Program-made: the position numbers and the translations under genes
The notes under the pieces: model-generated
What the model saw: the letters and a program-made list of their open reading frames with translations, nothing else
The model's database searches: none
What the model was told of the DNA's origin: nothing
From: Candidatus Forterrea multitransposorum CG_2015-17_Forterrea_25_41
Lineage (GTDB): Archaea > Iainarchaeota > Iainarchaeia > Iainarchaeales > CSSED10-239
Reading direction: 5' to 3'
Assembly: GCA_009392915.1 (NCBI GenBank)
Contig: CP045477.1
Span: 192,001-256,000, forward strand
DNA length: 64,000 bases
Part shown: in pieces, positions 18,844 to 58,269 of the stretch
How positions within the stretch are numbered: the first letter of the stretch is position 1
Layout of the letters: the number at the start of each line of letters is the position of its first letter

Positions 18844-18917
18844 GCTCGAATAGTGTAGCCCGGTAATCATATCAGACTCTCACTCTGATGACGGGGGTTC
18901 GAATCCCCCTTCGAGCA
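18844..18917 (+). tRNA. tRNA-Glu (CUC)
   Basis: GCUCGAA UA GUGU AGCCCGGUAA UCAU A UCAGA CUCUCAC UCUGA UGAC GGGGG UUCGAAU CCCCC UUCGAGC A. Confidence 0.9.
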
Positions 18918-18972
18918 CTTATAATATTTTTTAAAAATCTATTTAATAACTTAAATTTGTAATTACTTAATT

Positions 18973-23601: not shown

Positions 23602-23720
23602 ATTATTAAATATATTTAAGAAAATAGTTTAAAAGACTATGGTTTTTAAGTATTATGTTGGTTTTATAAAAATATAGGTTTTTAATATATTTATTGTTTA
23701 TTTAAATGAGATAATTAGAT

Positions 23721-24161: not shown

Positions 24162-24205
24162 TTTTTATTTTTTAAAAAAATAAGAAAAAAAAAGAGAAAG
24201 AAAAA

Positions 24206-24490: not shown

Positions 24491-24599
24491 AATTATTCAC
24501 TCTTTTTTTATAAATTTTAATTTTTAAATAAGTTGTTCACTCTTACTCTTATATAATATATATAAGCAAGCTTTAAAAACAAATTGTTTTTTAAAGAAT

Positions 24600-36384: not shown

Positions 36385-36606
36385 ATGGCTAATATGACTT
36401 TAAGTATACCTGATGATCTTTTAAAAGAATTAAAAAAACACTCTTATATTAAATGGAGTGAAGTTGCAAGAATTGCTTTTGAAGAAAAGGTAAGTGCTTT
36501 AGAAAGAATAGATGTTTTTAAAGAATTTCAAGAAGCTGAAAGAGATTTTAAAGATGGAAAAAGTATTTCTTTAGAACAATTAAAAAAGGAACTTGGTAAA
36601 AAATGA
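36385..36606 (+). CDS. Ribbon-helix-helix (CopG-like) small protein
   Basis: MANMTLSIPDDLLKELKKH... is a typical RHH beta-strand plus helix start. Its stop overlaps the next gene's start (ATGA, 36603..36606). Confidence 0.5.
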   Translation: MANMTLSIPDDLLKELKKHSYIKWSEVARIAFEEKVSALERIDVFKEFQEAERDFKDGKSISLEQLKKELGKK

Positions 36607-37754: not shown

Positions 37755-38174
37755 GTGATTAAATTGAAATTAAAAAAATTAAGTTTTATATTTATTTTAT
37801 TTGCTTTTTTAGTTTTTTCTGCAATTAATGTTTCTGCAGATATAACTACTAGAAGTCTTCCAACAATATATAAAGTTACAGGAGATATTGATATTCCTTC
37901 TCCAGGAACTAATTATTATTTTTTAGTAACATCTGTTAAAAACGGAACTACTTTATATCCTGTTTCAAAAACTCAATGTGCACAATATACTGTTTTGAAA
38001 GATCAATTAACTCAAGGTATGTTTATTGGTCCAATATCTTCAGAAGTTACAGGTTATAATAATAAAAGTTTTACTTTAAGATTAATGATACAAAAGTATA
38101 GTAGTCAAAGTTTATGTCAAACTGGAAATAATTCTATTAGTATGACAGGCAATTTAGGAGAACTTTATAGTTAG
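37755..38174 (+). CDS. Small secreted protein, unknown function
   Basis: Signal peptide: KLSFIFILFAFLVFSAINVSA/D. There is no ATG start. The candidates are GTG 37755 or TTG 37764, after the SD AGGTGA at 37753..37758. Confidence 0.5.
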   Translation: MIKLKLKKLSFIFILFAFLVFSAINVSADITTRSLPTIYKVTGDIDIPSPGTNYYFLVTSVKNGTTLYPVSKTQCAQYTVLKDQLTQGMFIGPISSEVTGYNNKSFTLRLMIQKYSSQSLCQTGNNSISMTGNLGELYS

Positions 38175-38191
38175 AGGGGGTTAGTTTATTT

Positions 38192-40857: not shown

Positions 40858-41193
40858 ATGAAACTAGAAAAAATTGGTGCATTTGCTTTTCTTGGTGGTA
40901 TCTTAATTTCAATTATTTTTGGACTTATTTACAATATTAACCATCCAGTATGGCTTTCAACTGTTTTAATTATTTTAGGATTAGTTGTTGGTCTTTTAAA
41001 CATTGAAGATAAAAACATATCTCTTTTCTTAATTGCATCCATTACATTTATTGCAACTAGTAACTCAATAAATGCAATACCTGTTATAGGAGATGTATTA
41101 AGAGGAGTTTTAGTTAATTTAGTATACTTTGTAGCTCCAGCTGCATTAGTAGTTTCAATTGTTGCAATTATTAGAGTTTCAAACTCTAAATAA
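40858..41193 (+). CDS. Small 3-TM membrane protein
   Basis: Good SD (AAGGAG, 40842..40847). Three hydrophobic helices. Preferred over the antisense ORF 40929..41228. Confidence 0.55.
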   Translation: MKLEKIGAFAFLGGILISIIFGLIYNINHPVWLSTVLIILGLVVGLLNIEDKNISLFLIASITFIATSNSINAIPVIGDVLRGVLVNLVYFVAPAALVVSIVAIIRVSNSK

Positions 41194-41362: not shown

Positions 41363-44300
41363 ATGGTTAAAGATAAAAATAATTTAGGCTCAAATGAAAA
41401 CAATGAAAATAAACAAAATATTTTTTCAAGATTTTATAATTATCTTGAAGATAAATATTCTTCTTTATCAAACTGGCTTACAGAAAAAGGAATACCATTA
41501 AATAATTTAAATAATTATTTAGAGGAAAAAGGACTTCCTGCTTTTGCAATAGTTGCATCTATTTTATTATTATTAATCTTTATAATTGTTTTCTTAATTA
41601 TCTTTTCTTTTTCCAGTCAATCAACATTAATTTTTTCTGTTAAAGATTATTCTGGACTTTCAATCAATGATGCTTTTTTAAAAATTACAAATAGTTCAGG
41701 TAAGGAAATCTTTTCAGGAACTGTAAATGATACTGATGTTAAAAAATTAAAATTAAAATTAGGAGAATTATATTCTTTTAAATCAACTAAAGATGGATAT
41801 CCTGATTTTTCAAAATCAATAACTATTACTGATAAAGATCAAAAAGTACAAATTACTTTTTCAGAATCAATTGAGTATGGTATATTAAGAATAAAATTAA
41901 TAGATAGAGATAATAAAGGAATAATTACTTCAGGAACTGCGATCGCAAGATATTCAATTAATAATGCTCCTGAGTCTACAGAAAACATTGTAAATATTGC
42001 AAATGAACATTTTATTACTTTAGAAGTTCCAATGAATAAAGATATTGAACTTTTAGTTAGTGCAGATGGTTATGAAGATTTTAAAGAAACAAATTTTAGA
42101 ATAACTTTAGAAAATCAAGAAAAAGTAATTGAAATGGATATTTCTTCTTTATCTTTTGAAGGTAAAAGTCAAGTTACTTTTGTTGTTTTAGATACAGAAC
42201 AAAATCCAATTGATGGTGCTTTAGTAAGCATATATAATCTTGGAGATGAATTATTAGATTCAAAAAATACAATTGATGGAAGAGCTTTATCTTTTATTGA
42301 TAGTGGTTCTACAATATCTTATAAAGTTGAAAAAGAAGGTTATAGAACATTTGTAAGTGATCCTGAAGTTTCTTTTAGAATTACAAAATCTGAAATAACT
42401 TATAATGTTACTTTAGAAGAGGGTGGAAATTTTTTAGATGTGTTTGTAAAATCTGGTTCTAATTTTTTAGCTCTTGGAGATGTTGCAATTACTGTTTATG
42501 ATTTAAATAATAATATTATTAATTCTGGAAATACAGATGATTTAGGAAATTTAAAATTAACTGGTCTTTCTGATAAAGCACCAATTGTTGTAACTGCTTG
42601 TAAAGAAGATTTCCTTTGTGAAAATTTAACAGTAGATCTTTTAGAAAAAAGTTCAGTTGAGTTTACTTTAGAAAGAATAGATGTAACAAATAGTGCTATT
42701 CTGTCTGTTTTTGTTGTTGATGAAAAAAATTTACCGATCTCAAAAGCTTTTATAAAAATCTATCAATTACTTGAAGATGATAAAGAAGTTCCATACAACA
42801 CATCTCTTCAAACTGATCTTACAGGTTCTCTTTCAATACCTCTAAGAGTTGGAGATTCTTTTATAGTTTATTCATTAGTTGGAGAAGTTCAATATTTTGA
42901 AGAAATTACAATTGATGCTTTAAGAGAAAATAAAATAATTTTTGTAATGGATAATGCTTCTAAAATAATTAAATTAGATCTTTATGATGAAAATGGTTTT
43001 AAACTTACTTCAGGTTCTTTACTTGTAAAAACAAAAGATGGAACTGTTCTTTTTGATGGTAATTTATCTGAAACTGATCAAATAAGTTTTATTTCAGAAG
43101 GCTATAAAGATTTATATGCTGAATACACAGATGTTAATGGTAATAAATCTTCAATTAATTTTAATGCTGATGAATCTGAGTCAGATGGATATATAAGACT
43201 TGATTTTAATAAAGAAGTTAATTTAACAGATTATCCTGTAATTGAGTTTTCAGGAATTGTAGATTCTAAAGGAGTTAAATCAAATTTTGTAACAATAGGT
43301 AAAGAATATTATTTAATTTTTGATGTTTTATTCCCAGAAAATACTTATAAAGGACAAGTACATATTAGAGCTGGTGATGATACTCAAGTTGATGTTGAAG
43401 AAATGAGTTATGGTATAACTGGTTTTTCTGCAATGGATATTTATGATTTTAAATATGGTACAACATATAATAGTTCTCCTCTTCCAGGTTTAATGAATAT
43501 TGATCTTTTAAATGAAGGTTCTTCTCAAGTTTTAAATAAATGGCTTGAACTTAAATGGAATAGTGATCTTCCTTTAGGTAATAAACAAATCAAAGTAAAA
43601 ATAAATGTTATAGATGATTCTTATTCAAAATTAACTTTTAAATATAGAACTTTATTTGAAGAAAATAAATTATACTATAGAGATCCAGTTGACTCTTTAT
43701 TAAACCAAAGTTATTCTTCATCTCAAAAAGGTGCTTTATATGCAGATACAAAAGAAGTAAATATTGATGTTTATAATGTTCCTTTAGATTGTGAAGGTTC
43801 TCAATGTTTGTCATATACTTTTATTGATTCAAAAGGAAATGAATTTTCAAAAAATGATTTCTATGCTGTAAGAGATGAAACTTATTTTTTAAAAGTTAGT
43901 CTTTATTCTTTAGATAATAAACAATTAGATCTTTTAGCAGAAACTTCAAAAAGTTTCCCTTTAATTTCATTTGGTTCTTTTTCAGATAATCTTTATCAAA
44001 ATGAAATAATAAATGATAATTCTTTATTTGAAATTTCAAGAGATGGTTTTTTACTTTCTGAAAATTCTTTAAAAAATATTTATCTTTCATTTATCTCAAA
44101 AGATATTGGTGCTGCATATATTGATCTTAAAGCAACAGATGTTATTTTAGGAAATGAAATTTTAAACAATAGATTAAGTTTTAATGTTTATGATAAAAAA
44201 GAAATGAATGTTTTAGTTTCTCCAAGTAATTATGTTGATTATGGATCAAATTTTACTGTTGATGTTTTAGATTCAGTTTCTCTTGAACCTATTACAGATG

Positions 44301-47300
44301 CTTTTATTTCTTTTTATGATGTTAGAGATACTTTTATTTCTTCTTTAAAACCAAGTAATTCAAATGGAAGGAATGGAAAATATACTATTACAAATAATTT
44401 TAATACTTCAACTGTTAAAATGGTAGTTGAAAGATATGGTTATCTTCCTTATGAAACTGAAATTTATATTATTGATAATACTTTATTAAATGCAATTCCT
44501 TCAGAAATAATTTTTAATTTAGGTCTTGACCAAACAGCATCAACTTCAAATTTTAGTTTAGAAAACTTAGGTAATTATCAAGCAACAAATGTAAGGTTTG
44601 GAGAACCTATTTGGATTGAAGGTAGTGCTGGTATTTATCTTGAAGGAAGAGGTAATCCAATAATTAATAAAAACTCAACTCAAAATTATCAATTGTTACT
44701 TACAACAGAAAATGATGTTGAACTTAAAACAGCATATGCACATCTTCCAGTATATGCATCTGTAGGTCCTAGAGAAGTTACAAAAATATTAAATGTTAGA
44801 ATAAATAAAGGTTTAATGTTAAATGAATGTGTTGAAATTACTCCTTCTGAAGTTTCTTCTTTTGTTGGACTAAATGTTTCTTCAAATTATGCAGATCCTT
44901 TTAATACTCCTTTTGCAGATTATGATTATACTTCAAATACTTCAAATAATCCTATGCTTGCACCTTCTCAAAGTTATTCTAATTATGAAGAATATTTAAA
45001 TTCAAGTGGATATAACATTACTGATTCAACAGATAATGGTTATACTTACACAGATTCTAAAAATTATACTTATCATGCAACTTCTCCTGCTCTTAATTCT
45101 CAAATTACTGAAAACACAACTTATTTTACAATTAAAAATAATTGTTCTCAAGCTATAACTTTTAATCCTCAAGCAGTTTTAACTTCTTCATCATCAAATA
45201 ATAATTTAGAAGTTTCTCTTGCAAACATAACTGTTCTTCCAGGAGAAGAAAAAGTTTATGATGTTATTTTAAAAAATTCATCTGAACTTAAAAGAAAAAC
45301 AACATATACCTATAATGTTTTATGGCATAATAATTATTATTCAATAGCTCCTTCAGTTTTAAATGTTGATCTTTTAGATTTAAGTAGAGCTTTATGGGTT
45401 ATGCCACAACAAATAAATATTCCAATCTCTCAAGTACATCCTCAACAAGCTGCTGAAAATTATACTAGATTTTTTATTAAAAATATAGGTGCTGTTCCAA
45501 TAACTGATATACAAATAAGTCAGTATCCAAAAATGGTGTCTTCTAATATTAAAATAACTGAATATCCAAGACAAGTATCTGTTTTAGAACCAGGAAAAAC
45601 AATTCCTGTTGATTTAAAATTTTCAGTAAATATTAATAAATCTACATTAGATAATGCCTTTATACAAGTAACTGGTAAAGCTGTTGGTATTAGTGAACCA
45701 ATTACTTCAACAACACAATTAGTGTTTTCAATTTCTTCTCCAAATTGCTTAAAAGTAAGTAATAAAAATATTAATTTTGATTTAGAAGTTGGGGAAACAA
45801 GAGCAAGAAATATTACAATTACAAATCAATGTTCTGAACCTGTTACAATAGTTGGAATTGATAAAAAACAACAAGGATATTATCAAGCATATGGGGATAA
45901 TTCTTTTAGAATAACTCCTGCTTCTGGTAATCCAATAATTCCTGTTAACATGTCAAATTCTTATAGAATAGAGTTTACTGCAAATTCTTTAGGTGGTTCT
46001 CCAAAAACACCAATGATACTTCAAGGTAGATTAATGAATTCAGGTAATCCTGTAACTTCAGAAGAGGTTTTAGTTTCAATAACTATAGATGATATAATGG
46101 TTGGAGAAGAAGCTGAAAGAAATATTTCTATTTTATCTTCTCTTCCTTCTTGTGAAGATCCACAAAATATTAATTCATATAATAGACCATTAATTTCAAT
46201 TAAAGATTGTTCTGAAACTTCAGGATATTGTGATGGAGAATCTTCAGCTGAATTAATTTTAAAAAAAGTAAATGAACTTCAAAATGAAATTAAACAATTT
46301 TCTGCACAAACACAATCAAAAGTAATTGATACTGGTTGTACTCTTCAAGATGCATATAGTGGTTTTTGTAAAATATCTGAACTTGGTGGAGGAATTGATC
46401 CTGTTGAGTTTTCTTTCTTTATGCAAAATGATAATGTTACACCTGATTTAATTAAATCTATTTTAACAAAATCAAATTATTCTTTTAAAAATTATTTTGT
46501 TGAAACAAATATTTTTAATAAAGAAATTAAAACTATAAATCAATATTCTTCTTATGGGGTATATGCTGGTGGAAATAAAATATTTGTATCTCCTCACCTA
46601 TCAGGTTGTGGAAAATATACAGTAGAGATTGATGGTTATGTTGCTGCAAGTCCAGATTATATTTATCCTGAAAGAGCATATTATTATATTAATGTTGTAG
46701 AAAAAGATACTAACACTATTCATTGTGAGAAAAATATTGTAAATTATTTAAATTATCTTCCATGGGATCTTTCTTTTAATAAAAACCAAAGAGCAGGAAC
46801 TTGGCTTACTTTATTTACTGGTGATGAAAATTTATCAAAAGCTTTAATTAAAAGTGTGGGTAAGTTTAAGTCAGATGAAATTGATTTAAGATATGTTTAT
46901 AATAAAGATGTTTTATCTACAAGAAATAGTACTTTAAATGTTTCAACTGGAGAGATTTCTGAAAATAAAGAAGCTCTTGCAAAAATTTCTTTTAATGATA
47001 CTTCTTTAAGAAAAAGCTCTTCTCCAGAACAAATAGATATTACTTTAAATTCTCTTTATAATTCTCCTGAAGGTAAAACTTCTGAGTATGCTGTTAAAGA
47101 TTTTTCAAAAGTAATTTCTTCAATGATTTCAGATAATGATTATTCTGCAAAAGTTTGTATTTCTGAAGATAAAACATATATGCTTGTTTTAGATGTTATT
47201 TCAGCAGGAGATTTAACTTTTGTTGATAAAGAAGTAAGTCTTCCTTTAAAGGATGGAGCTTCATGTTCTTTATTAAAAGTTAAATCATCAGTTCCTGAAA

Positions 47301-49378
47301 CTTTAAAGATTACTTCTGATTCTTTAGAGTTTGCAAATATTGGTTTTAAGAAAAATAAAGATGATACTCTTCAAGAGTCATTAGATATTAGTGTTATTGC
47401 AAATAAAGATTCTAACTTTTATATGTGTGTAACTCCAAATTCAGAGACTGCTATCTCAAGTCTTGTTGATAAAAAAATAACTGTAACAGCAACAAGTATT
47501 TATTCTGCAAGTGGTAGTATTGGAAATAGAAGCACAACTTCAGAAGTAGCTTTCTCTTCATGTGCAATCACACCTGAAGATTATCTTTTAGGTATTTATT
47601 CAAATATTTTAACTGAAAATAATAAAGCTGAAGATGATAGAATCTTACCTCAAAATTATACAGCTATTGTAGATTGGGATAAACAATATAATCCTGAAGA
47701 AAAAGAAAAATTATGTTCAACTTTACAAAAGATTGTAAATAGTAAAAAGTATAATGGAGAACTTTTCTTTGATTATGAAGTTTTAGGTTGTGAGATTGAA
47801 GATTCTTCACAAGAAAGAGATTCAAGAATAAGTAAAGGATTACATAATGCTGGACAATATTTCTTTTCTTGTTCAGGAGCTTGTGGACTTTGTTATGGTC
47901 TTTCAGGACTTATAATGCCTACACAATTTGTAGGTGCAATTGTTGATTGTTTAGGTTTCTCTTGTTTATTACCTTCATTAAATATATTTGCATCAAATCT
48001 ATCTAATGGAGAAGGTGGAATATCTTGGCTTTTAGATGAATTTTTTGGATTATTATTAAATGATGATGTTAGTTTCTTTTCAAATATTACAAGTGAGATT
48101 GAAACATGGGTAAGTGGTGTTTTAGGTGTTGGAGGAGCTGCAACAAGTGGAGCTTTAAAAGCTAATGCTGCTTCTGCTGCTGTACCTTTAGATCAAGTTA
48201 CTCAAGACTTAGTTTCACAATCTAGTTATGATCCTACAACACAACAAATATTAGATGATTTAGCAAATCCATCAACAACACCTGCTCCTGTAAATCCATC
48301 AACAACTTCTGGTGTAATTAATGGTTCTACTGAATTAAAAAATTTAAATAGTCAATTAAATAATTTAAATAGATATTTAAGTGGTAATGACAATATTAAA
48401 TTACAAACATTTTCAAACCCACAAGAAGCAGGTAGATTTAGTGATATCCTTAGAAAAATGAATCAAACATCTGGATCTAACTTTGATAAATTGAGATCTT
48501 TATCTACTCAAGAGTTTGATGATTTTGTAAATATTCTTGAAAAACAAAATTTTACAGGTAAAAATAGTCATTTATTCAAAAAAGACTTACTTATTAAAAG
48601 ATTAAAAGATGCTAAAGTAAATGATTTCAAATCAGTTTCAGCTGCAACTTCTTCAAGTGCAGCAGCTACATCTAGTAGTGCAGCTTCAGTTGCTGATGAT
48701 TTCTATGATTACCCTAAAGCAGATTATGATCAAGCAATTAAAAATTTTGATAATGATATTAAAATGCTTGATGATTCAATAAGTAATCTTGAAAATCAAA
48801 AAGCAGCAATTGAAACTAATGCAAAAAGATCATCTGCAAATCCTAAAAAAGCACTTCGTTATAAATCAAAAGTTGATGCTCAAATAAAAGCAATAGATAG
48901 TCAACTTGATGAACTTAAAAAAAGTAAAGATGCTCTTTCAAGTGTTAAATCTAAATTTGCTTCAGCTAAAAATGTAAATGGTACTTATAAAGTTCCAACT
49001 TCTGCAATTGATGATTTATCAAATAATATTCCAAAACAAGCAAAACTTAGCAAATTATCTAAATTTGCAAAAATTAAAGGTGTTGCAAAAAGCTTTGGAA
49101 GAGGCCTTCTTTGTGGTGCTACAGGAAATGCTGCAGGAATATATTCTTTAAAAGAAGAAGGTAAAACAGGACTTAATAAATCAATAGAGTTTTTAAGTAA
49201 AAATGATTTTGAGAAAAATATATTCTATGTTTCAGAAGTTGATATGTTATCTCCAGAAAATGATCAAGAATACGAAACAAGATATACAATTAATATAAAA
49301 CCTTATATCTCTCAAGATCAAAGTATTATTTCTTCAATTCCTACAAAAAGAATTGATTCTTGTACTATAGAAGAATAA
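41363..49378 (+). CDS. Giant surface protein A (2671 aa): N-terminal cytoplasmic motif + TM anchor, CarboxypepD_reg/PEGA-like beta-sandwich array, Cys-rich hydrophobic hairpin and coiled-coil C-terminal region
   Basis: An uninterrupted 8016-nt ORF. N-terminus: FSRFYNYLEDKYSSLSNWLTEKGIPLNNLNNYLEEKGLPAFAIVASILLLLIFIIVFLIIF. At least 6 repeats end in ..K(D/E)GY..F.. (KDGYPDFSKSITI, ADGYEDFKETNFRI, KEGYRTFVSDPEV, RYGYLPYETEIYI). Later IKNNCSQAITF and TNQCSEPVTIVGI sandwich starts. C-terminal FFSCSGACGLCYGLSGLIM...FVGAIVDCLGFSCLLPSL, followed by heptad-like segments. Confidence 0.9.
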   Translation: MVKDKNNLGSNENNENKQNIFSRFYNYLEDKYSSLSNWLTEKGIPLNNLNNYLEEKGLPAFAIVASILLLLIFIIVFLIIFSFSSQSTLIFSVKDYSGLSINDAFLKITNSSGKEIFSGTVNDTDVKKLKLKLGELYSFKSTKDGYPDFSKSITITDKDQKVQITFSESIEYGILRIKLIDRDNKGIITSGTAIARYSINNAPESTENIVNIANEHFITLEVPMNKDIELLVSADGYEDFKETNFRITLENQEKVIEMDISSLSFEGKSQVTFVVLDTEQNPIDGALVSIYNLGDELLDSKNTIDGRALSFIDSGSTISYKVEKEGYRTFVSDPEVSFRITKSEITYNVTLEEGGNFLDVFVKSGSNFLALGDVAITVYDLNNNIINSGNTDDLGNLKLTGLSDKAPIVVTACKEDFLCENLTVDLLEKSSVEFTLERIDVTNSAILSVFVVDEKNLPISKAFIKIYQLLEDDKEVPYNTSLQTDLTGSLSIPLRVGDSFIVYSLVGEVQYFEEITIDALRENKIIFVMDNASKIIKLDLYDENGFKLTSGSLLVKTKDGTVLFDGNLSETDQISFISEGYKDLYAEYTDVNGNKSSINFNADESESDGYIRLDFNKEVNLTDYPVIEFSGIVDSKGVKSNFVTIGKEYYLIFDVLFPENTYKGQVHIRAGDDTQVDVEEMSYGITGFSAMDIYDFKYGTTYNSSPLPGLMNIDLLNEGSSQVLNKWLELKWNSDLPLGNKQIKVKINVIDDSYSKLTFKYRTLFEENKLYYRDPVDSLLNQSYSSSQKGALYADTKEVNIDVYNVPLDCEGSQCLSYTFIDSKGNEFSKNDFYAVRDETYFLKVSLYSLDNKQLDLLAETSKSFPLISFGSFSDNLYQNEIINDNSLFEISRDGFLLSENSLKNIYLSFISKDIGAAYIDLKATDVILGNEILNNRLSFNVYDKKEMNVLVSPSNYVDYGSNFTVDVLDSVSLEPITDAFISFYDVRDTFISSLKPSNSNGRNGKYTITNNFNTSTVKMVVERYGYLPYETEIYIIDNTLLNAIPSEIIFNLGLDQTASTSNFSLENLGNYQATNVRFGEPIWIEGSAGIYLEGRGNPIINKNSTQNYQLLLTTENDVELKTAYAHLPVYASVGPREVTKILNVRINKGLMLNECVEITPSEVSSFVGLNVSSNYADPFNTPFADYDYTSNTSNNPMLAPSQSYSNYEEYLNSSGYNITDSTDNGYTYTDSKNYTYHATSPALNSQITENTTYFTIKNNCSQAITFNPQAVLTSSSSNNNLEVSLANITVLPGEEKVYDVILKNSSELKRKTTYTYNVLWHNNYYSIAPSVLNVDLLDLSRALWVMPQQINIPISQVHPQQAAENYTRFFIKNIGAVPITDIQISQYPKMVSSNIKITEYPRQVSVLEPGKTIPVDLKFSVNINKSTLDNAFIQVTGKAVGISEPITSTTQLVFSISSPNCLKVSNKNINFDLEVGETRARNITITNQCSEPVTIVGIDKKQQGYYQAYGDNSFRITPASGNPIIPVNMSNSYRIEFTANSLGGSPKTPMILQGRLMNSGNPVTSEEVLVSITIDDIMVGEEAERNISILSSLPSCEDPQNINSYNRPLISIKDCSETSGYCDGESSAELILKKVNELQNEIKQFSAQTQSKVIDTGCTLQDAYSGFCKISELGGGIDPVEFSFFMQNDNVTPDLIKSILTKSNYSFKNYFVETNIFNKEIKTINQYSSYGVYAGGNKIFVSPHLSGCGKYTVEIDGYVAASPDYIYPERAYYYINVVEKDTNTIHCEKNIVNYLNYLPWDLSFNKNQRAGTWLTLFTGDENLSKALIKSVGKFKSDEIDLRYVYNKDVLSTRNSTLNVSTGEISENKEALAKISFNDTSLRKSSSPEQIDITLNSLYNSPEGKTSEYAVKDFSKVISSMISDNDYSAKVCISEDKTYMLVLDVISAGDLTFVDKEVSLPLKDGASCSLLKVKSSVPETLKITSDSLEFANIGFKKNKDDTLQESLDISVIANKDSNFYMCVTPNSETAISSLVDKKITVTATSIYSASGSIGNRSTTSEVAFSSCAITPEDYLLGIYSNILTENNKAEDDRILPQNYTAIVDWDKQYNPEEKEKLCSTLQKIVNSKKYNGELFFDYEVLGCEIEDSSQERDSRISKGLHNAGQYFFSCSGACGLCYGLSGLIMPTQFVGAIVDCLGFSCLLPSLNIFASNLSNGEGGISWLLDEFFGLLLNDDVSFFSNITSEIETWVSGVLGVGGAATSGALKANAASAAVPLDQVTQDLVSQSSYDPTTQQILDDLANPSTTPAPVNPSTTSGVINGSTELKNLNSQLNNLNRYLSGNDNIKLQTFSNPQEAGRFSDILRKMNQTSGSNFDKLRSLSTQEFDDFVNILEKQNFTGKNSHLFKKDLLIKRLKDAKVNDFKSVSAATSSSAAATSSSAASVADDFYDYPKADYDQAIKNFDNDIKMLDDSISNLENQKAAIETNAKRSSANPKKALRYKSKVDAQIKAIDSQLDELKKSKDALSSVKSKFASAKNVNGTYKVPTSAIDDLSNNIPKQAKLSKLSKFAKIKGVAKSFGRGLLCGATGNAAGIYSLKEEGKTGLNKSIEFLSKNDFEKNIFYVSEVDMLSPENDQEYETRYTINIKPYISQDQSIISSIPTKRIDSCTIEE

Positions 49379-49487: not shown

Positions 49488-51167
49488 ATGTTAAGAAATA
49501 AAAAAGGATTTAATTTATTTACTGCTTTAATCTCATTGATGCTTTTATCAATAACTCTAGTTTTTATTTTTAATATGGTTCAAACTGAAGAAAATTATTT
49601 AGAATTAATAAATAATCAATCTCAAGCTTCTGACCTCTTAACAATTGCAGATATTTCAAGAGCTGATGCTTTTAATAATTTTGTTGTTTCTTTTAGAGAA
49701 CAATGGATGTCTTTTAGAAGTGATCCTCGTTCTGAAATCATACTTAAAAGAAAAGATATTATGCTTGATTGGGATGGTTTTGTAGATTATTTTGCAGATT
49801 ATATTTTCTTTGATAATAGTTTTGAAAATTATTTTGCAGATAATATGGTTAGATCTTTAAATTATACAAATCCACCAACAGGTTATGCAATAAATGTTCC
49901 TAATTATTCTCGTGATGATTTATCTAGTATTATTAAAACAGCTTTTCTTGAAGCTGGAGATGATAAAATAAAAGTTGTAAGTTGTGAAAGAGAAGATGAG
50001 GTTTGTTTAGGTACACTTTATTTTACAATTGATACTAGAAAACTTTCTGCACAAGAATATGAAAAACTTCCAATGATAACTGTTAAAAGAAATGTTGATG
50101 ATGAAGTTATTCAAAGACCAGTTTTTGCAAAAAGAGCATACAGGATATATATTCCCTGGAGAGGTTTTCAAGCTTTAAGGACTGTTAGAAATTTTGCACT
50201 TGATGCTGATCTTGAAAAAGGAGAAACAACAGCTCAAATTATTGAATATTCAAAAGATTCAAGAGGTTTTTTAAACCCCTATATTCATTATACTCTCAAT
50301 AGTGCAAAACTTGGTGTTTGTGATATTGATAGTTGTGCTCTAAGAAAAGATTTATTTAAAACTGTTGAGTTTAATGGGTTTACTGGAGATGCATGTTCTA
50401 ATCCGCCTGGAGTTAGTAATGTTTCTGACAATGGAGGAATTACTGGATCTTTTACTGGAGAAGTTTCTCTTTCTAATAATCATAGTTACAATATTCAAGA
50501 TATAGATGGAACTGTAAAACCTATATATAATGATTTAGTTAAAACAACTATAGAAAACAATTTAGAATATAGAACTGATATAATACATGCAGGAAATAAT
50601 TTGCCATCAATCTCTTCTTCTTCAATTTTAGATGATGAATGTCAAATGTCTTTAACAACTGGAAATTTTTCAATATGTGATATACGTGTAAGACTTCCTT
50701 CTCCAAAAGTTACAAAAGAAGTTATTTCTGTAGGAACTGTTTCAGAATCTTTAAGTAGTTTATCTCAAGTTTCATTCAATCCTTCTGGTAGTTTTAATAA
50801 AGCTTCAAACTTAAGTCTCTCTATTGATGATGATTTAAATATTAATGTTTTTGATCAAGAAAGTACTATTCCTAATGAAACTGATAATCAATATCTATCA
50901 TGTACAACAATTGACTATATTGATTTATTATTTAAATTTGAAGAACAAGATGAAAAGTATATTTTTTCTCAAGATTCTAAAAATATTTATATTTTAATTC
51001 AAGATAGATTTTCAGATTATACTTTCTTTAATTCATTTGGAAGCGTTCCTAACTTTAGTGGAGGATATTTTCAAAAAAGAGAACTTCCTTCATTTACAGG
51101 AGGACAAGGTTGGACTTGTAAAAGTTATGAAGCAAATGAAGATGATGCAGCATGTGTTGCAGGTTAA
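49488..51167 (+). CDS. Large pilin-like protein (class III signal peptide), 559 aa
   Basis: N-terminus MLRNKKG/FNLFTALISLMLLSITLVFIFNMV. The rest is polar with scattered Cys residues. It is embedded between giant genes A and C. The SD GGTG is at 49474..49477. Confidence 0.75.
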   Translation: MLRNKKGFNLFTALISLMLLSITLVFIFNMVQTEENYLELINNQSQASDLLTIADISRADAFNNFVVSFREQWMSFRSDPRSEIILKRKDIMLDWDGFVDYFADYIFFDNSFENYFADNMVRSLNYTNPPTGYAINVPNYSRDDLSSIIKTAFLEAGDDKIKVVSCEREDEVCLGTLYFTIDTRKLSAQEYEKLPMITVKRNVDDEVIQRPVFAKRAYRIYIPWRGFQALRTVRNFALDADLEKGETTAQIIEYSKDSRGFLNPYIHYTLNSAKLGVCDIDSCALRKDLFKTVEFNGFTGDACSNPPGVSNVSDNGGITGSFTGEVSLSNNHSYNIQDIDGTVKPIYNDLVKTTIENNLEYRTDIIHAGNNLPSISSSSILDDECQMSLTTGNFSICDIRVRLPSPKVTKEVISVGTVSESLSSLSQVSFNPSGSFNKASNLSLSIDDDLNINVFDQESTIPNETDNQYLSCTTIDYIDLLFKFEEQDEKYIFSQDSKNIYILIQDRFSDYTFFNSFGSVPNFSGGYFQKRELPSFTGGQGWTCKSYEANEDDAACVAG

Positions 51168-51297: not shown

Positions 51298-54200
51298 ATG
51301 GGTCTTAGATCTTTTTACTTTAAACAAGAAGAAAAATATTTTAATTTTCTAGACAGGATGGAGAAAAAAGGAATTAATCTATACAAAATAATAGATCCTT
51401 TAGAAAAGAATGGTATACCTACTTTTTTAGTATTTAATATATTTATTCTACTTTTAATTTTATTTTTAGTTTATTTATTTGTTGGACAAACTCCATTAAC
51501 TGATGAAAACTACACTTTAACTTTTGTAAATTCTCAAGACCAGCCAATCTCAAATCAAGCAATTGAAATTCTTCTTAATAACAATAGAAAGATTTTAACA
51601 ACTAATGAATTTGGAATTTCAGAAATTACTGATGTTGAAATTAAATCTTATGATTTAGAAATAAGTAGTGAAAAGTATACTCTTGAAAATCCATTAACTT
51701 TAGATTTTAAAGAAAACACTTCTCATAAAATATTTTTAAAATCAAAAACTTCTGTTTTATCAAAAACTATATATTTTAAAACAAATAATGAATTATATAA
51801 TTCTCCATTAACAATTTCAAATATTTCTTGTTCAAATAATTCTCTTTATACAAAAAATAATCTTCAAACAAATGATGGTTCTTTAACTTTAGATGATATT
51901 CCTACAGATTGTGGATATTTAGAAGTTGCTATTGAATCTTCAACAATTAATGCTGTTGGTTCTTTAGAAGTTTCAGAAGACTCTCCTTCTGGAGATATTG
52001 ATTTAAGTTTTGAAGGTGTTGAAACTGGAAGTGCAAAAATAATTATTCTTGATAAAGATTTAAAAGTGCCTATTCAAAACATAAGTATTTCTATTCTTAA
52101 TAATCAAAGTCAAATTGTAACTTCTTCAATAACAAATGCAAATGGTATAGCATCTTTTGAAGAAATAAATGTTGGAACATATAATCTTTTAATCTATGAT
52201 GAAGAAGAAAGATACAAGCCAGTAACTGAAAATGAAAGTTTAGAACTTGTAGTATATGATTCTGTTTTAGAAGAAAAAGAAGTTCTTTTAGAAAAAGCAT
52301 TCATTGGTAAATTAAATTATAAAATTATTGATACTCAAAGTAAAGAAGCTATTGAAAATGTAGCTGTAACAATATACAAAGGAAATGATATTTTAAAAAC
52401 AATTAATTCAAATAAAGAAGGCGATGTTTCTTTTGGTGTTGAAGAAAATATTTCTTATAAAGTTTTATTTAATCATCCTAATTATATAATAAGAACTGAA
52501 AATAATCAAAGAATAAGTGAATCTATTAAACAAATTGCCTTAACTCCAATAACAAATGAAAATTTAAGAAGTTTAGTTATTACTGTTGTTGATGATTTTG
52601 CAAAACCTGTTGATTTTGCAACCATAAGATTATGGGATGATACTGAAGATATTATTCTTAGAACAATAACAGCTGATATTTATGGTAAAGCTGTTTTTAC
52701 AAATTTAGATTTAGGTAAAGAATATAGACTTGATGCAACTAAAGATCAATTTACTTCAAATCCTACAAATCCTTTTAGAATCTCAGAACAAGAAATAACT
52801 GAAGAAACTATAAAGATGAGTATAGGTGAAGGAACTTTTAATATTAATTTAGTTTCTGAGTATGGAGAGTTCTATCAAGGAAATGTATATGTTTATGATG
52901 CAACAAATGATACTTTAATGCAAGATAAAACCACAACAACAAACCAAGATGGTTTTACAATAATAAAGATTAGAGCTGATAAACAAATTTATTTTGTTAT
53001 TGATAATTTAGATTCTAAATTTATAACTCCAAAGTATTCAACAAATGCAAATGAAATAAATACTTTAAATTTTACAATTCCAGGAACTGTTGGGCAAACA
53101 TCTGGTATTGAATTTTTAGGTTTTTATAATGCTGAAGGAGAAAAAATAAATTCAGTGGCTGCAGGTATGCAAGTTACTGCTAAATATTTATTAAATGTTA
53201 CAAAAGAATATTCTAAAGCAGTTGCACATATAAGAACTGGAGAAGTTCCAAGTCCTTTATGTTCTTCAAACACATATAATGTTTTAGAAGATTTAATTTT
53301 TATAAAAGATGTACGTTATGCAAAATCTGATAAGATCGGTTCATTAACTTTTACTCCATGTAATGGAGAAGGTATTGATTTTTCAAATAAAACTTTAAGA
53401 AATGCAAAATGGTTTAATTTAACTTTAAATAATCCAATGCAAGGAAGTTATTTAATTGAAGCAGATGTTGTTGTTTTAGATACAGCTTTTGCAAATCAAG
53501 CTTTAAACTATAGAGCAGAGTTTTATCAAGGTTCAAGTATTATAAGATCACCTGTTGATTCTTCTTATAGTTCTTCAACAAGTAAACAAAATTTATATGC
53601 TCAAGCAAAACAAGTTCAATTATTTTTAGGAACTCAAAATCAATGTACTTCACTTATGTGTTATGCATTTATTATGACAAATACACAAAATAATTTATCT
53701 AGAAATATAATTGATAGTTATAAAGCTAAATTAAATAATGATTATAGACTTTCATTTAGTTTAAATGTTTTAGATGGAAAAATTGCACCAAACTCAATGC
53801 TTGTAATCTCTTCAGGTAGTTCTGTTGATTTAGATGGTTATTCTATTACTTCAGGAACTGGTTCTCTTTTAGTTGGAGAGGATTATGATGGAATTGATTT
53901 AGGTTCTTTAGTTTCAAATGATTTAATAACTGGAGAGCTTGCTTTTAAAGTAATAGATGATGTTTCTGATGTTTTAGACTTTTCAATAGTTTCTAATGGA
54001 GAAGTTGTATTCTCTAAAAAAATATATCTTGAAATTGATCCTGCAAAAGAAATGTTTGTAGAGTTTGTTCCAAGAAAAATTGTTCCTTTTGTTTCAAATG
54101 ATTTACTTGTTGTTGTAACTGATGATTCTAATAATTTTATTTCAAATGCAATTGTTGAACTTTCAATTAATGATAGAAGTTTAACTGTAGGTTCAACTAA

Positions 54201-57200
54201 TCAAGAAGGATTATTTGGTCATGTAATTCCAGCAACTGATCTTGGAGATGTTTTAAAGATTGTTGTAAAGAAAGATGATTATAAAACAGTTAAAACAGAA
54301 ATTGTAATTGATGATAAATTAATCACAACAATTCCTGAAAAAATTGATTTAACAATTGATTCTTCAAAATCAATAAGAGAAGTTTATAATTTTAGTTTAT
54401 ATAATGAATCTTATGTTCCTTTAACAATTGTTTCTGCATCAGCATTTACTGATAATGAATTTGTTGATCTTGATTTAGGTATTGAAGAAAATATCATAAA
54501 TGGTGTTTCTCAAAATGATATTTCTCTAACAGCAACATTAACAGATAAAGGTATTAATCTTTATAATCAACAAACAATTAATACAGAAGTTGCAATTAAA
54601 ATTAAAAGTGAAGAAATGAATAAAACTTGGGTTATTACAGTTCCATTAACTGTTAGAATAGTTTTAGGAAATTCTCTTGATTCTCTTGAATGTTTAAAAG
54701 TTCTACCTCTTGAAGGAACAATTAGAGCTAAATCTCAAGAAACAAAAACTTTAGATTTTACTTTAGAAAACACTTGTACTTCAAAGAATGTTTCTGTTGA
54801 TTTAGGAACTATTAATGCAATGGTTGATTGGGGTAATGAATCTGAAACTGGACTTTTATCAATTGTTGTTTCTGGTAAAGAATATATTTTAGAAAACTTA
54901 ACTGAAACTGAAATATTATCAACTCTTTTAAAGAAATCAAAAACAACTTTACAATTAAAGTTTAAAGCGCATAAAATAGTTTCAGATGTTAAAATACCAA
55001 TTATTTATTTTACTTCAAAGAAAGGAAATATTAATGGTGTTGATGAAGTTAAAACAAGACTTCCCTTAAAAACAATTATTAATGATTATTCAGAATGTAT
55101 TGAGATCCCAAGAGAGACAATTCCTGCTCTTGCATGTAATTGGTATTCTGGACTTAATAACTATGGTAATTATTATGGTGGAGTAAACCAAGGAGGAGCT
55201 TTCAATAATCCTTATTATGGTGGAAATAATTTTAATGCAACATATAATCCTAATAACCAATTTAATTCTAGAAATTACTATCAACAAGGTTCTGGTTATG
55301 TTACACAACAACAAGGTGTTTTTAATCCAAATTATAATTTAGTGGGACAAACAAATTATACAGGAAATCAAAATTCTGTGTTTAACCCTTATAATTTCCC
55401 TTCCTCACAATATCAAAATACTTTTGGAAATTATGATAGTTATAATTTTACATCAGGTTATCCTCAAGGTAACTATGGAAACATGGGTTTTACAAATAAC
55501 ATGAATTGTCCAACAAGACCATTTTATATTAAAAATAATTGTTCTGAAGCTGTTGATATTAAACTTGATTCAATATATGGTTTAACAATTGCAACAGATA
55601 AAGAATTTACAATAGAACCTGGAGATACAGAAGAGATTAGTGTTTTAGGTGGAGAGTCTATGGGTACTTTTAAAATACCTGTAAATGCAAAAGCATCTCT
55701 TGCATCTAATGAAAATTATTCAACAATTGGAGATGTTTTATTTTCTTTAACATTACCAATTAGTTTTATGTCTTCAAATTGTATACAAGTAACTCCTCAA
55801 AAATTAGATTTTTCAAATATTATTGATCCTAACTATCAACTTGTAAAAGTAATTAATACTTGCTTTGCACAAGGATACAGAATAGTTGAAGTTAATTATC
55901 TTGATTTAATTTCACTTGACTTTGATGGTGTATCTTTCTTAAATGTAGGAGATATGCAAGGAAGAATTCAACCAATTAAAGTTGATACTTTAACAAATAC
56001 AACTACAAATGAACCAATGGAAGTTTGGGAAATTGCATTAAGAAGAAATCCTGAAATTGAAAATACTAAGTCTGTAAAAGAGTATATGAATAAATATTCT
56101 GATTATTCTTTAGCTGCTGGTGTTATTTCTTCATTTAGAAAAATATTAATTGATGTTGAAGACGCAGTTAACTTAAAGTTTTCTTTACAAGTTGGACTTC
56201 AACCACCAACAGGACAAGCTTCACTTATCTATAATAATATAGGTATGGAACTTAAGGATAATTTCCAATGGTTAATTTTAGATAATCCTGATAATATAGG
56301 TCTTTTAAAAGATTTATTTGGTGATGAAGCTATTAGTGATGAAGAAATTTCATTTATTGATACTTCTGTAAAATTAACATATACCCTTGATCCTAATAAC
56401 AATGCAGTTATTATTAATGTTCCTGAAGGAGAACTTGCTGCAGATAAATTCACACAAATTGATCAAGACCCTACAAGTAAAAGATGTTTCTATGGATATG
56501 TTAAAGATTTCCCTATAACTGGTATTGTAGATACTTCATATATACAAAACTCTGGTAAATATTATTTAAATAATAAATATGATCCATTAGATGTAAGTCT
56601 TGAATTTATTACTAGAAATAAAAATATCTTTAAATTATGTTTTGAAAGACCAGTTGAATCATTTGATAATATTTTAGCTACAAATGATAATTACAATATC
56701 TTAGATTTATTTAAAACAAGTAAAGATTCTCTTACAAACCAAAACTTTGAGATTTGGAGAATTTTAGATACTACAAATAAAGGTAAATACCAAGGTAGTA
56801 CTTTAATTGGTGTAAAAGCTGATGTTTCAACAAAAGAAGTTGGCTCTAAAGAAGAGGGTGACTCTGGAAAAACTGATCCTTCTCAAACAACAGATGATTC
56901 TTTAGTTTGTCTTGCTCCTGACCTTTCAACAAATCTTGGACATACAGGTTCTAATGTTTATTCTCAATATGGATTTGATAAAATATTACTTGATTACTTA
57001 CCAGAAGATATTACAGATTCTTCTTGTGAAGATTATTTCTGTGATCAAGAACAATTCTATAATTTCTTAACAAAGAAAGCAGATAAATTAAAAGAAGTTA
57101 CTTCAAATAGTAATTATATAAATATTAATGGTATTTATTTTGAAAAAGAAAATAATACTATTAAAGAATCAAAAGTAAAAGTAGATCTTTGTGCAAACGG

Positions 57201-58269
57201 CGTTTGTGATGGCTTTGATGTTTCTGGTAAAGAAACTTTAAATGATTATATAAATCAAGCAAATAAAGTTTTAAATGCTGTTCCAGCAGACTTAAAGAAA
57301 ATAACAATCATTAAGACTAAAGGTTTAACTACTAATGGAAATAAAATTGTAACAATTGGTGATTATCAATATACAACTGTTGATTATTTCTTAGAAAATT
57401 ATGATTCTTTTGAGAACAAAGCAATAGTTTATGCAAACATGGATGTATACTTTGGATCTTCTCCTCAAGTATTCAGTTCTAACCTTAAGAAATTTTCTGG
57501 TAGTTCTGAAGATTTAAATAAAAAAATCTTAGCAAACTTTAATAATACTTTAACAAGTAACTATACAATTGAGTATGCTGAGGCTGTAAATATTTCAAAA
57601 CCAGGAACTTATACAACAGTTATTTCTCTTGAAAATATAGATTCTCAAAATAAAAGAAAAATAAATTTAACAATAGGTTCTAAAGTTTCTGAGATTAGTG
57701 AAGAATATAGTAAAAATATTTTATTTACATATCCAATTAATCCTGAATATACAATGAAAGAAAAGAGTGATAAATATAATGCTCCTTTCATTAAGAATAA
57801 AAATTATACTTTAATTGATTATCCTTCAGAAATTATACAAGATGGATATATCTTTAAGTTTGAGGATATGGCAAATTATGATTTTATTGATTCAAGACCA
57901 TTTTATTTCAATAAACCATATAGTTTTAAGATTATTGAAACTAATGAAAATAATACAGAGCTTGATTTAATAGAAAATAAAGCAAGTTTATTCTTACTTA
58001 AAGATAGAACAAATAAAAAGATTAGTTTGTATTCAAAACCACAAATTACAAGTCAAGATACAAAGAATAACACTGTCTTTTTAAAAACAACTACTAATAA
58101 TAATTATATGATATATAATTTACAAATGAATAATGTTTTACCAAAATTAACATATTCATCAATGAAAGATGTATTTAATGAAATTAAAAACGAGAATGTA
58201 TGTTTCAATATAACTGAAGGAACAACTCCTGAACTTATGTTGTGGCATAATCCTGAAAAATTTAAATGA
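51298..58269 (+). CDS. Giant surface protein C (2323 aa), paralog of A and D
   Basis: An uninterrupted 6972-nt ORF. N-terminus: MGLRSFYFKQEEKYFNFLDRMEKKGINLYKIIDPLEKNGIPTFLVFNIFILLLILFLVYLF. It has a beta-sandwich array (KDDYKTVKTEIVI and others), an N/Q/Y/G-rich low-complexity segment, and IKNNCSEAVDIKLD, ENTCTSKNVSVDLG and INTCFAQGYRIVEV module starts. Confidence 0.9.
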   Translation: MGLRSFYFKQEEKYFNFLDRMEKKGINLYKIIDPLEKNGIPTFLVFNIFILLLILFLVYLFVGQTPLTDENYTLTFVNSQDQPISNQAIEILLNNNRKILTTNEFGISEITDVEIKSYDLEISSEKYTLENPLTLDFKENTSHKIFLKSKTSVLSKTIYFKTNNELYNSPLTISNISCSNNSLYTKNNLQTNDGSLTLDDIPTDCGYLEVAIESSTINAVGSLEVSEDSPSGDIDLSFEGVETGSAKIIILDKDLKVPIQNISISILNNQSQIVTSSITNANGIASFEEINVGTYNLLIYDEEERYKPVTENESLELVVYDSVLEEKEVLLEKAFIGKLNYKIIDTQSKEAIENVAVTIYKGNDILKTINSNKEGDVSFGVEENISYKVLFNHPNYIIRTENNQRISESIKQIALTPITNENLRSLVITVVDDFAKPVDFATIRLWDDTEDIILRTITADIYGKAVFTNLDLGKEYRLDATKDQFTSNPTNPFRISEQEITEETIKMSIGEGTFNINLVSEYGEFYQGNVYVYDATNDTLMQDKTTTTNQDGFTIIKIRADKQIYFVIDNLDSKFITPKYSTNANEINTLNFTIPGTVGQTSGIEFLGFYNAEGEKINSVAAGMQVTAKYLLNVTKEYSKAVAHIRTGEVPSPLCSSNTYNVLEDLIFIKDVRYAKSDKIGSLTFTPCNGEGIDFSNKTLRNAKWFNLTLNNPMQGSYLIEADVVVLDTAFANQALNYRAEFYQGSSIIRSPVDSSYSSSTSKQNLYAQAKQVQLFLGTQNQCTSLMCYAFIMTNTQNNLSRNIIDSYKAKLNNDYRLSFSLNVLDGKIAPNSMLVISSGSSVDLDGYSITSGTGSLLVGEDYDGIDLGSLVSNDLITGELAFKVIDDVSDVLDFSIVSNGEVVFSKKIYLEIDPAKEMFVEFVPRKIVPFVSNDLLVVVTDDSNNFISNAIVELSINDRSLTVGSTNQEGLFGHVIPATDLGDVLKIVVKKDDYKTVKTEIVIDDKLITTIPEKIDLTIDSSKSIREVYNFSLYNESYVPLTIVSASAFTDNEFVDLDLGIEENIINGVSQNDISLTATLTDKGINLYNQQTINTEVAIKIKSEEMNKTWVITVPLTVRIVLGNSLDSLECLKVLPLEGTIRAKSQETKTLDFTLENTCTSKNVSVDLGTINAMVDWGNESETGLLSIVVSGKEYILENLTETEILSTLLKKSKTTLQLKFKAHKIVSDVKIPIIYFTSKKGNINGVDEVKTRLPLKTIINDYSECIEIPRETIPALACNWYSGLNNYGNYYGGVNQGGAFNNPYYGGNNFNATYNPNNQFNSRNYYQQGSGYVTQQQGVFNPNYNLVGQTNYTGNQNSVFNPYNFPSSQYQNTFGNYDSYNFTSGYPQGNYGNMGFTNNMNCPTRPFYIKNNCSEAVDIKLDSIYGLTIATDKEFTIEPGDTEEISVLGGESMGTFKIPVNAKASLASNENYSTIGDVLFSLTLPISFMSSNCIQVTPQKLDFSNIIDPNYQLVKVINTCFAQGYRIVEVNYLDLISLDFDGVSFLNVGDMQGRIQPIKVDTLTNTTTNEPMEVWEIALRRNPEIENTKSVKEYMNKYSDYSLAAGVISSFRKILIDVEDAVNLKFSLQVGLQPPTGQASLIYNNIGMELKDNFQWLILDNPDNIGLLKDLFGDEAISDEEISFIDTSVKLTYTLDPNNNAVIINVPEGELAADKFTQIDQDPTSKRCFYGYVKDFPITGIVDTSYIQNSGKYYLNNKYDPLDVSLEFITRNKNIFKLCFERPVESFDNILATNDNYNILDLFKTSKDSLTNQNFEIWRILDTTNKGKYQGSTLIGVKADVSTKEVGSKEEGDSGKTDPSQTTDDSLVCLAPDLSTNLGHTGSNVYSQYGFDKILLDYLPEDITDSSCEDYFCDQEQFYNFLTKKADKLKEVTSNSNYININGIYFEKENNTIKESKVKVDLCANGVCDGFDVSGKETLNDYINQANKVLNAVPADLKKITIIKTKGLTTNGNKIVTIGDYQYTTVDYFLENYDSFENKAIVYANMDVYFGSSPQVFSSNLKKFSGSSEDLNKKILANFNNTLTSNYTIEYAEAVNISKPGTYTTVISLENIDSQNKRKINLTIGSKVSEISEEYSKNILFTYPINPEYTMKEKSDKYNAPFIKNKNYTLIDYPSEIIQDGYIFKFEDMANYDFIDSRPFYFNKPYSFKIIETNENNTELDLIENKASLFLLKDRTNKKISLYSKPQITSQDTKNNTVFLKTTTNNNYMIYNLQMNNVLPKLTYSSMKDVFNEIKNENVCFNITEGTTPELMLWHNPEKFK

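Follow-up and report, generated by a model that had tools for sequence, protein, structure and literature searches.

A conserved N-terminal module preceding the single membrane helix of giant surface proteins in DPANN archaea

Introduction

DPANN archaea are tiny, mostly uncultivated episymbionts, and the foremost candidates for their attachment to hosts are giant surface proteins. To our knowledge, almost nothing is known about the export and anchoring of these giants. The question is raised by a locus of Candidatus Forterrea multitransposorum (contig CP045477.1, positions 192,001 to 256,000). This 64-kb stretch, with 25% guanine plus cytosine (GC), is referred to here as the window, and positions are counted from its first base. 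Four co-directional genes, A-B-C-D, are clustered on the + strand in the right third of the window, and A, C and D encode giant surface proteins. A first reading of the DNA letters alone (the original prediction) had proposed that the three giants share a conserved cytoplasmic motif immediately before their only N-terminal transmembrane (TM) helix, and that this motif is either a targeting or insertion signal or a docking site for a cytoplasmic partner. Whether the motif is genuine, which proteins carry it and what it may do are considered below.

One N-terminal module in three giants

The N-termini of A, C and D translate exactly as originally quoted (41363-41611, 51298-51483 and 58297-58464). 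In pairwise local alignments (Smith-Waterman, 2000 shuffles), the scores of A with C (z=9.3) and of C with D (z=12.7) are reached by 0/2000 shuffles, and the A-D pair is weak when taken alone (z=3.2, score reached by 20/2000 shuffles). A hidden Markov model (HMM) was therefore built from 56 family members whose motif shares ≤50% identity with that of A, C or D. This leave-out HMM scores C at 68 bits, A at 33 bits and D at 31 bits, each at the N-terminus, and the best other segment of the six-frame translated window reaches 5.5 bits (340 segments). It thus settles what the weak A-D pair alone could not and, judged by sequence, one module is present in three copies, at residues 19-61 in A, 1-43 in C and 1-37 in D. 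The proposal that all three giants share the motif stands for A, C and D but needs one correction, namely that a fourth giant, F, lies past the right end of the window and carries a degenerate copy without the first nine residues.

The claim that the motif was retained while the remainder of the proteins diverged is also borne out. BLASTP detects no similarity between A and the other giants. A, C, D and F are nevertheless full-length paralogues at profile level, as a profile of C orthologues is collinear with residues 23-1068 of A (E 2.6e-33), 1-1323 of D and 7-1301 of F. All 17 homologues of C, which are 22-63% identical overall, start with the module sequence. Across 14 orthologues of the 2323-residue protein C, residues 1-43 form the most conserved of all 43-amino-acid (aa) segments (rank 1 of 2281), with a mean pairwise identity of 0.76 vs 0.375 overall. 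Orthologues of A are 25-96% identical to it.

At the DNA level, 31 of the 43 module residues are identical between C and its orthologue in locus L001, and 12 of these 31 are specified by different codons. Third-position identity between the two module sequences is 0.56 vs 0.85 at positions 1+2, and the paralogous modules within the window have a DNA identity of only 0.57-0.70. This synonymous-site divergence, together with the low identity between paralogues, excludes recent gene conversion. The module is thus under strong purifying selection, which acts on the peptide and not on the DNA.

Anatomy and predicted structure

The module consensus is M-G-L-K-[DE]-F-Y-Y-x-L-E-D-K-Y-Y-x-F-L-D-x-L-D-x-K-G-I-P-V-Y-K-V-V-D-P-I-E-K-x-G-I-P-S-F-P, followed by the TM helix. 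It consists of an amphipathic heptad helix (helix 1, consensus MGLKDFYYxLEDKYYxFLDWLD) and two 12-residue units of the form phi-D-x-phi-[DE]-x-x-G-I-P-x-[YF], referred to here as GIP units, at positions 18-29 and 32-43. The second unit abuts the membrane helix. The strongest match of the profile to itself is at offset 14 (score 24.2; next best 14.1), which identifies an internal duplication, and helix 1 comprises three heptads of the pattern L-x-D-x-Y-Y-x with a self-match at offset 7. Six positions are near-invariant among 95 aligned members: Y7 (93), E11 (94), D19 (90), Y29 (91), D33 (86) and P41 (92).

AlphaFold2 (AF2) models from the 95-sequence alignment show the same layout. In C, a helix at 2-23 is followed by the turn K-G-I-N, a second helix at 29-37, the turn N-G-I-P and the TM helix at 42-62, with a predicted local distance difference test score (pLDDT) of 82 and a predicted template modelling score (pTM) of 0.49. 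In A, residues 1-19 are disordered, and helices at 20-41 and 46-55 are each followed by a turn (KGIP and KGLP, respectively) before the TM helix at 60-82 (pLDDT 79). The extension that precedes the module in A-type proteins is charged, is ∼10-50 aa long and has a mean pairwise identity of 0.16 among A orthologues; in the model of A it has a pLDDT of 52-61 and no secondary structure. Tolerance of a disordered extension of this length suggests a folded domain rather than a signal that depends on a free N-terminus.

Several variants of the module were found, and paralogue-specific forms are conserved between genomes. D-type proteins and some from Micrarchaeota have a degenerate first GIP unit, and the D-type form is kept in the L001/L002 orthologue. 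A protein in locus L007 has the first GIP unit only, and here it abuts the membrane. The presence of GIP units both away from the membrane and adjacent to it speaks for a structural or binding role of the unit and against a site of cleavage beside the membrane.

Distribution across archaea

An exhaustive HMMER search with a 62-position profile (motif plus TM helix) against 1.84 billion cluster representatives returned 1082 representatives at E≤1e-3 and 504 at E≤1e-10, with E-values down to 1e-27. The best 150 of the 1082 matches were inspected. The top match, P0019, was discarded as a false positive of low complexity (21 stretches). A 43-position HMM of the motif alone refinds the module in all 163 proteins examined, and the match begins at residue 1-7 in 149 of them, so that the N-terminal enrichment expected from the original prediction is seen well beyond this locus. 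Carriers are ≥1000 aa in 105/163 cases (median 1751), and most are 1000-3000 aa long and rich in CarboxypepD_reg domains. One short carrier that was checked is encoded on a 629-bp contig. Two rare carriers have the module away from the N-terminus. In P0073 (1290 aa) an additional multi-helix hydrophobic region comes first and the module starts at residue 120; in P0103 (413 aa) the module starts at residue 63, behind a long charged extension. The starts of these two proteins may be mis-called, or they may be fusions or extreme cases of the A-type extension.

The taxonomic labels that were recovered all belong to DPANN, being either Candidatus Micrarchaeota, Candidatus Iainarchaeum/'ainarchaeum', 'DPANN group archaeon' or plain 'archaeon'. 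The proteomes of many carriers are rich in Ala, Gly and Val, and an AT-rich composition is therefore not the cause of the similarity, a concern that had been raised with the motif. The usual NCBI product name of the carriers is 'carboxypeptidase-like regulatory domain-containing protein', in line with the similar N-termini that the original prediction had tentatively placed on large archaeal proteins annotated with CarboxypepD_reg. A scan of GTDB with the consensus peptide gave only 3 loci and was swamped by the low-complexity TM pattern.

When only the sequence past residue 75 is compared, similarity to C persists in 64 of 87 long carriers and is undetectable in the remaining 23. The modules of these 23 nevertheless score ∼70 bits, and four sampled carriers of this kind have CarboxypepD_reg (47-86 bits), SpaA or MG-type beta-sandwich domains beside the membrane. 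By these comparisons, carriers of the module make up one broad superfamily of giant surface proteins, in which the ectodomains are far less conserved than the module.

Comparison with known families

No Pfam family was matched by the three N-termini (E≤10) or by the 95 members (E≤0.1), and no NCBIfam model matched the three N-termini at E≤10. A PDB sequence search with the module profile gave no match (best E 0.27), and Foldseek gave 0 matches against PDB. A full-text literature search with motif strings and with terms for DPANN giant or CarboxypepD_reg proteins recovered no prior description. The proteins assigned to the S-layer of Micrarchaeota in a survey are MSTP-like and are not the module-bearing giants (10.1101/2024.05.28.596244).

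The HeH/SAP/LEM/Ish1 group resembles the module in length (∼35-40 aa), in its helix-turn-helix layout and in an L-x-x-W-L-x-x-x-G-I-x-V-P-like signature. Membrane proteins of the eukaryotic LEM/HeH type likewise have the motif at their N-terminus. In Pfam, Ish1 is matched below threshold by 6/95 members (best E 0.006, ∼15 bits vs the 26.6 cut-off), and there are no Pfam matches to SAP, LEM, HeH or Rho_N among the three N-termini and 95 members. Membership of HeH/Ish1 was rejected because the matches are sub-threshold, the module is acidic and there is no fold support; the resemblance is in layout only. A twin-arginine translocation (Tat) signal is likewise not seen, with no R-R among the top residues of the 46 motif columns or in A, C and D.

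The searches thus identify the module as an undescribed, family-specific N-terminal domain of DPANN giants. It belongs with a known kind of feature, the family-specific N-terminal export or anchor modules of giant adhesins, of which this family is a previously undescribed one.

Membrane helix and topology

A, C and D each contain exactly one strongly hydrophobic segment (a 19-mer with a Kyte-Doolittle value (KD) ≥1.8), located directly after the module as originally proposed. In A this 19-mer spans residues 63-81 and has a mean KD of 3.59. The same single segment is the only one in 86 of 93 long carriers, and a C-terminal anchor was found in none. Lys and Arg average 1.9 in the 15 residues before the TM helix vs 0.7 after it, and the domains that follow (CarboxypepD_reg, Big_1, SpaA and bMG3) are extracytoplasmic types. 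The single TM-grade segment, the extracytoplasmic domains beyond it and the enrichment of basic residues before it together suggest an N-in signal-anchor. With one TM-grade N-terminal helix and no other anchor (A, C, D and the 86 long carriers), the giants resemble type II signal-anchor proteins, which also have a short cytoplasmic N-terminus, as predicted here, and a large exoplasmic C-terminal domain. Ordinary type II signal-anchors differ in lacking a conserved cytoplasmic domain, whereas in the giants no part of the protein is more conserved than this segment.

Other exported proteins in the window have ordinary Sec signals (the 452-aa and 139-aa open reading frames (ORFs) and a DUF2207 protein; also E beyond the window) or class III signals (B and three proteins at 155-6414). 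The module is therefore specific to the giant family.

Proposed role and alternatives

The module is probably an anchoring and sorting handle of giant DPANN surface proteins. We infer that it is cytoplasmic, is not cleaved and binds a partner. The specific reading that we favour, to which we give slightly less than an even chance, is an uncleaved signal-anchor with a cytoplasmic module that binds a factor common to the paralogues. The hydrophobic helix would route the 200-300 kDa ectodomain through Sec in an N-in/C-out orientation and would then hold the giant in the membrane. The small folded acidic/aromatic module would stay in the cytoplasm on the mature protein, with a conserved face (Y7, E11, Y14/15, L18, D19, Y29 and D33 in C numbering) that may bind the common factor. 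Such a factor could serve the targeting or insertion of very long chains, or their positioning or assembly at the membrane. The two guesses of the original prediction, a targeting or insertion signal and a cytoplasmic docking site, are thus the leading hypotheses, and either would fit the data.

A small folded binding domain is favoured by the near-invariant acidic/aromatic face, the tolerated A-type extensions and the duplicated GIP unit with one copy off the membrane. These features would be explained less well by a signal that needs a free N-terminus, by a helix with generic affinity for membranes or by a protease site. Five observations weigh on the other side. The module is net acidic (mean -1.9), which makes the positive-inside signal weak. 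Small residues (G/A/S) often follow the hydrophobic segment, and cleavage past the TM helix is possible. The AF2 models have a pTM of only 0.46-0.49, leaving the packing of the helices uncertain. The matches inspected are the best 150 of the profile search, and a conserved cytoplasmic neighbour was not found across four independent loci, in which the sole conserved neighbour, B, is itself exported.

A modest but real chance is given to the idea that the module is an extended, cleavable signal peptide of the ESPR type. It would then be an enlarged n-region that paces or routes Sec export; signal peptidase I would cut after the hydrophobic segment, and the module would be discarded, with the giants released or held non-covalently. 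ESPR (PF13018) is indeed similar in being conserved from Met1, in lying before a hydrophobic export segment on unusually large surface proteins and in exceeding the normal conservation of an n-region. The module is at the extreme N-terminus in most members and is restricted to very large exported proteins, as ESPR is restricted to large autotransporters (type V secretion), and the G/A/S-rich stretches after the hydrophobic segment would suit a cleavage site. However, the hydrophobic segment of the giants has a KD of 3.1-3.6 vs 2.5-2.6 for the signal peptides of B and E from the same locus, 86 of the 93 long carriers have no further anchor, a conserved A-x-A-like site is not visible in the alignments, and A-type members have long extensions before the module. 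The module also differs from ESPR in being archaeal and not proteobacterial, ∼43 aa long vs ∼25, acidic and helical, with an internal repeat, a TM-grade helix and no evident cleavage site. The ESPR profile matches neither the three N-termini (E≤10) nor the 95 family N-termini (E≤0.1), and the carriers are archaeal proteins without autotransporter or TpsA domains.

A similar likeness is seen with the YSIRK-G/S (PF04650, TIGR01168) and KxYKxGKxW (TIGR03715) motifs, which are family-specific motifs in the export region of large adhesins and direct a particular secretion route or site. In contrast to the module, they are short, basic and bacterial and lie inside cleavable signal peptides, and none of the three models gives a match at E≤10. 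ESPR, YSIRK and KxYKxGKxW are the closest functional analogues of the module and are unrelated to it in sequence. More speculatively, the module could be the recognition tag of a dedicated archaeal pathway that exports, positions and assembles the giant adhesin fibres of DPANN archaea, with a receptor that organises host attachment and the pilin-like B in the same machine. Such a pathway, the archaeal counterpart of accessory-Sec, ESPR or YSIRK routing, is a speculative reading with perhaps a one-in-several prospect of being correct. If it exists, its cytoplasmic receptor would organise the host-attachment apparatus of Iainarchaeota and Micrarchaeota.

Oligomerisation through helix 1 is unlikely. 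Here the heptad helix would form a cytoplasmic coiled coil that bundles the giants, as homo- or hetero-oligomers of A, C, D and F, into a membrane-anchored fibre or complex, and no separate partner would be needed. Helix 1 has heptad periodicity and a hydrophobic moment of 0.41 (vs 0.21±0.10 for shuffles), several paralogues are co-encoded in a conserved A-B-C-D-E-F order, and their paralogue-specific module variants are conserved between genomes. On the other hand, there are only about three heptads, conserved acidic residues lie on or beside the hydrophobic seam, and at least one carrier is solitary among housekeeping genes.

Still less likely is a purely mechanical function, in which helix 1 lies in the plane of the inner leaflet and, with the GIP turns, stops the single TM helix from being pulled out under adhesin load. 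An amphipathic helix with 17% F/W/Y would suit this position, Tyr and Trp being typical interfacial residues, and a single TM helix has to hold an ectodomain of 200-300 kDa. Yet helix 1 has a net charge of -2.2 and a mean hydrophobicity of ∼0, which is unfavourable on an anionic membrane surface, and the conservation of E11, D19 and D33 (94/95, 90/95 and 86/95) exceeds the needs of generic membrane binding.

It is very improbable that the module is a long leader cut at the cytoplasmic face, at G-I-P-S-F-P, by a prepilin-peptidase-like or novel protease. As in archaeal class III signals, a Gly-containing junction, here the conserved G-I-P-[ST]-F-P, is directly N-terminal to the hydrophobic helix, proteins of this class are co-encoded in the window, and one of them, B, is a conserved neighbour. 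The class III pattern requires Gly or Ala without exception at -1, with a charged residue before it (-2) and a hydrophobic run from +1 onward directly ahead of the helix, and Pro at +2 is outside the FlaFind pattern. In the module, G39 is present in only 55/95 members and is a gap in 21/95, being deleted in D-type members, and +2 is Pro in 92/95. A GIP unit also occurs 14 residues upstream, off the membrane, and class III leaders are short and poorly conserved, whereas the module would make a leader of 37-61 aa and is conserved better than any other part of the protein. Canonical prepilin-type cleavage was rejected because the Gly is dispensable, Pro is at +2 and a further GIP unit is present off the membrane.

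Chance or compositional similarity in a Lys/Asn/Tyr-rich, AT-rich proteome, and conservation at the DNA level by gene conversion or a regulatory element, for which the low GC content of the window and the weak A-D pair might speak, are rejected in view of the E-values against 1.84e9 proteins, the pinning of matches to residue 1, the many Ala/Gly/Val-rich carriers, the leave-out HMM that finds only A, C and D in the window, and the divergence of paralogues at synonymous sites.

As a simple sequence tag, the module can be used to find and count DPANN giants in metagenomes, and it is a candidate for a new Pfam or NCBIfam domain. It is also a small, tractable bait toward the machinery that handles these proteins, and it lets one ask whether family-specific N-terminal extensions serve to route very large surface proteins in archaea as they do in bacteria.

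Gene cluster and neighbouring genes

The features of the cluster are listed in Table 1. Beyond the right end of the window, the cluster continues on the source contig with E and then F, and the A-B-C-D-E-F order recurs in a distant relative whose C is ∼33% identical. Residues 2069-2342 of F and 540-813 of E are 32.5% identical. Protein C has an identical entry at NCBI, 'hypothetical protein GW835_02520 [archaeon]', and the nearest labelled relatives are from 'Candidatus ainarchaeum sp.'. Together with the archaeal housekeeping genes of the window, this places the DNA in a DPANN archaeon, probably one akin to Iainarchaeota. CarboxypepD_reg (PF13620) scores above the gathering cut-off of 32.3 bits in C and D. 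For the A ectodomain, Pfam gives a sub-threshold bMG3 match only; it is nonetheless profile-homologous to C.

Table 1. Location and properties of features in the giant-protein cluster and of B homologues in other loci
Feature	Location	Strand	Description
Gene A	41363..49378	+	ORF, 2671 aa; giant surface protein, most divergent paralogue
A residues 1-18	41363..41416	+	low-complexity charged N-terminal extension, poorly conserved, predicted disordered
A residues 19-61	41417..41545	+	conserved module NIFSRFYNYLEDKYSSLSNWLTEKGIPLNNLNNYLEEKGLPAF; 62 bits motif HMM, 33 bits leave-out HMM
A residues 62-83	41546..41611	+	single TM helix, putative signal-anchor; KD 19-mer 63-81, AF2 helix 60-82
Gene B	49488..51167	+	559 aa; class III/pilin-like N-terminus MLRNKKGFNLFTALISL; without module
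Gene C	51298..58269	+	2323 aa giant surface protein; CarboxypepD_reg 73.9 bits; 17 homologues
C residues 1-43	51298..51426	+	conserved module MGLRSFYFKQEEKYFNFLDRMEKKGINLYKIIDPLEKNGIPTF; 68 bits leave-out HMM; AF2 helices 2-23 and 29-37, pLDDT ∼85
C residues 44-62	51427..51483	+	single TM helix; KD 19-mer mean 3.11; AF2 helix 42-62
Gene D	58297..63900	+	1867 aa giant surface protein; CarboxypepD_reg 62.8 bits
D residues 1-37	58297..58407	+	shortened module MGLKKLYYNLEDKYYSFVERTGLYKVTDKIDKVMPSF, first GIP unit degenerate; 47 bits motif HMM, 31 bits leave-out HMM
D residues 38-56	58408..58464	+	single TM helix; KD 19-mer mean 3.46
E	15642-18536 of locus L008 (source contig past the window)		964 aa, canonical Sec signal peptide
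F	18552-25604 of locus L008 (source contig past the window)		2466 aa giant, degenerate module copy
B homologues	L001 8014-9132; L007 3895-4881; L005 39-662		each directly upstream of a module-bearing giant

B has no Pfam or NCBIfam family match. Its homologues (tblastn; 27-41% identity) are directly upstream of module-bearing giants in L001, L005 and L007 as well as in the window, and B plus giant is a conserved gene pair across four independent loci. In the comparison of neighbours and architectures suggested with the original prediction, only B is conserved beside the giants, and the ectodomains sampled are of the CarboxypepD_reg, SpaA and MG types.

Just upstream of A (37755-39550 and 40858-41193), proteins of 139 aa and 452 aa with Sec signal peptides and a protein of 111 aa with several hydrophobic helices are encoded. 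These small exported or membrane proteins have no family assignment, and their homologues were not found beside giants in the other loci. At the opposite end of the window, the interval 155-6414 (- strand) contains an operon whose three products, of 1102, 176 and 802 aa, each begin with a class III-like N-terminus (..KG|V.., ..KG|A.. and ..RG|A.., respectively). The 802-aa protein has a sub-threshold match to the TafC fimbrial family and the 1102-aa protein a fibrinogen-like YCDxxxxGGGW domain. The operon probably encodes a type IV pilus-like adhesion system.

The remainder of the window includes a form II/III-type RuBisCO gene at 6740-8188 (633 bits to PRK13475), flanked by tRNA-His; this enzyme type is typical of the nucleotide-salvage pathways of DPANN and candidate phyla radiation (CPR) organisms. 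A HerA-like ATPase at 20402-22924 on the - strand is split by an intein, of which the N- and C-terminal splicing regions were detected, and NurA is encoded apart from it at 36603-37673. Further archaeal housekeeping genes in the window encode an XPD/Rad3 helicase and phosphoenolpyruvate (PEP) synthase.

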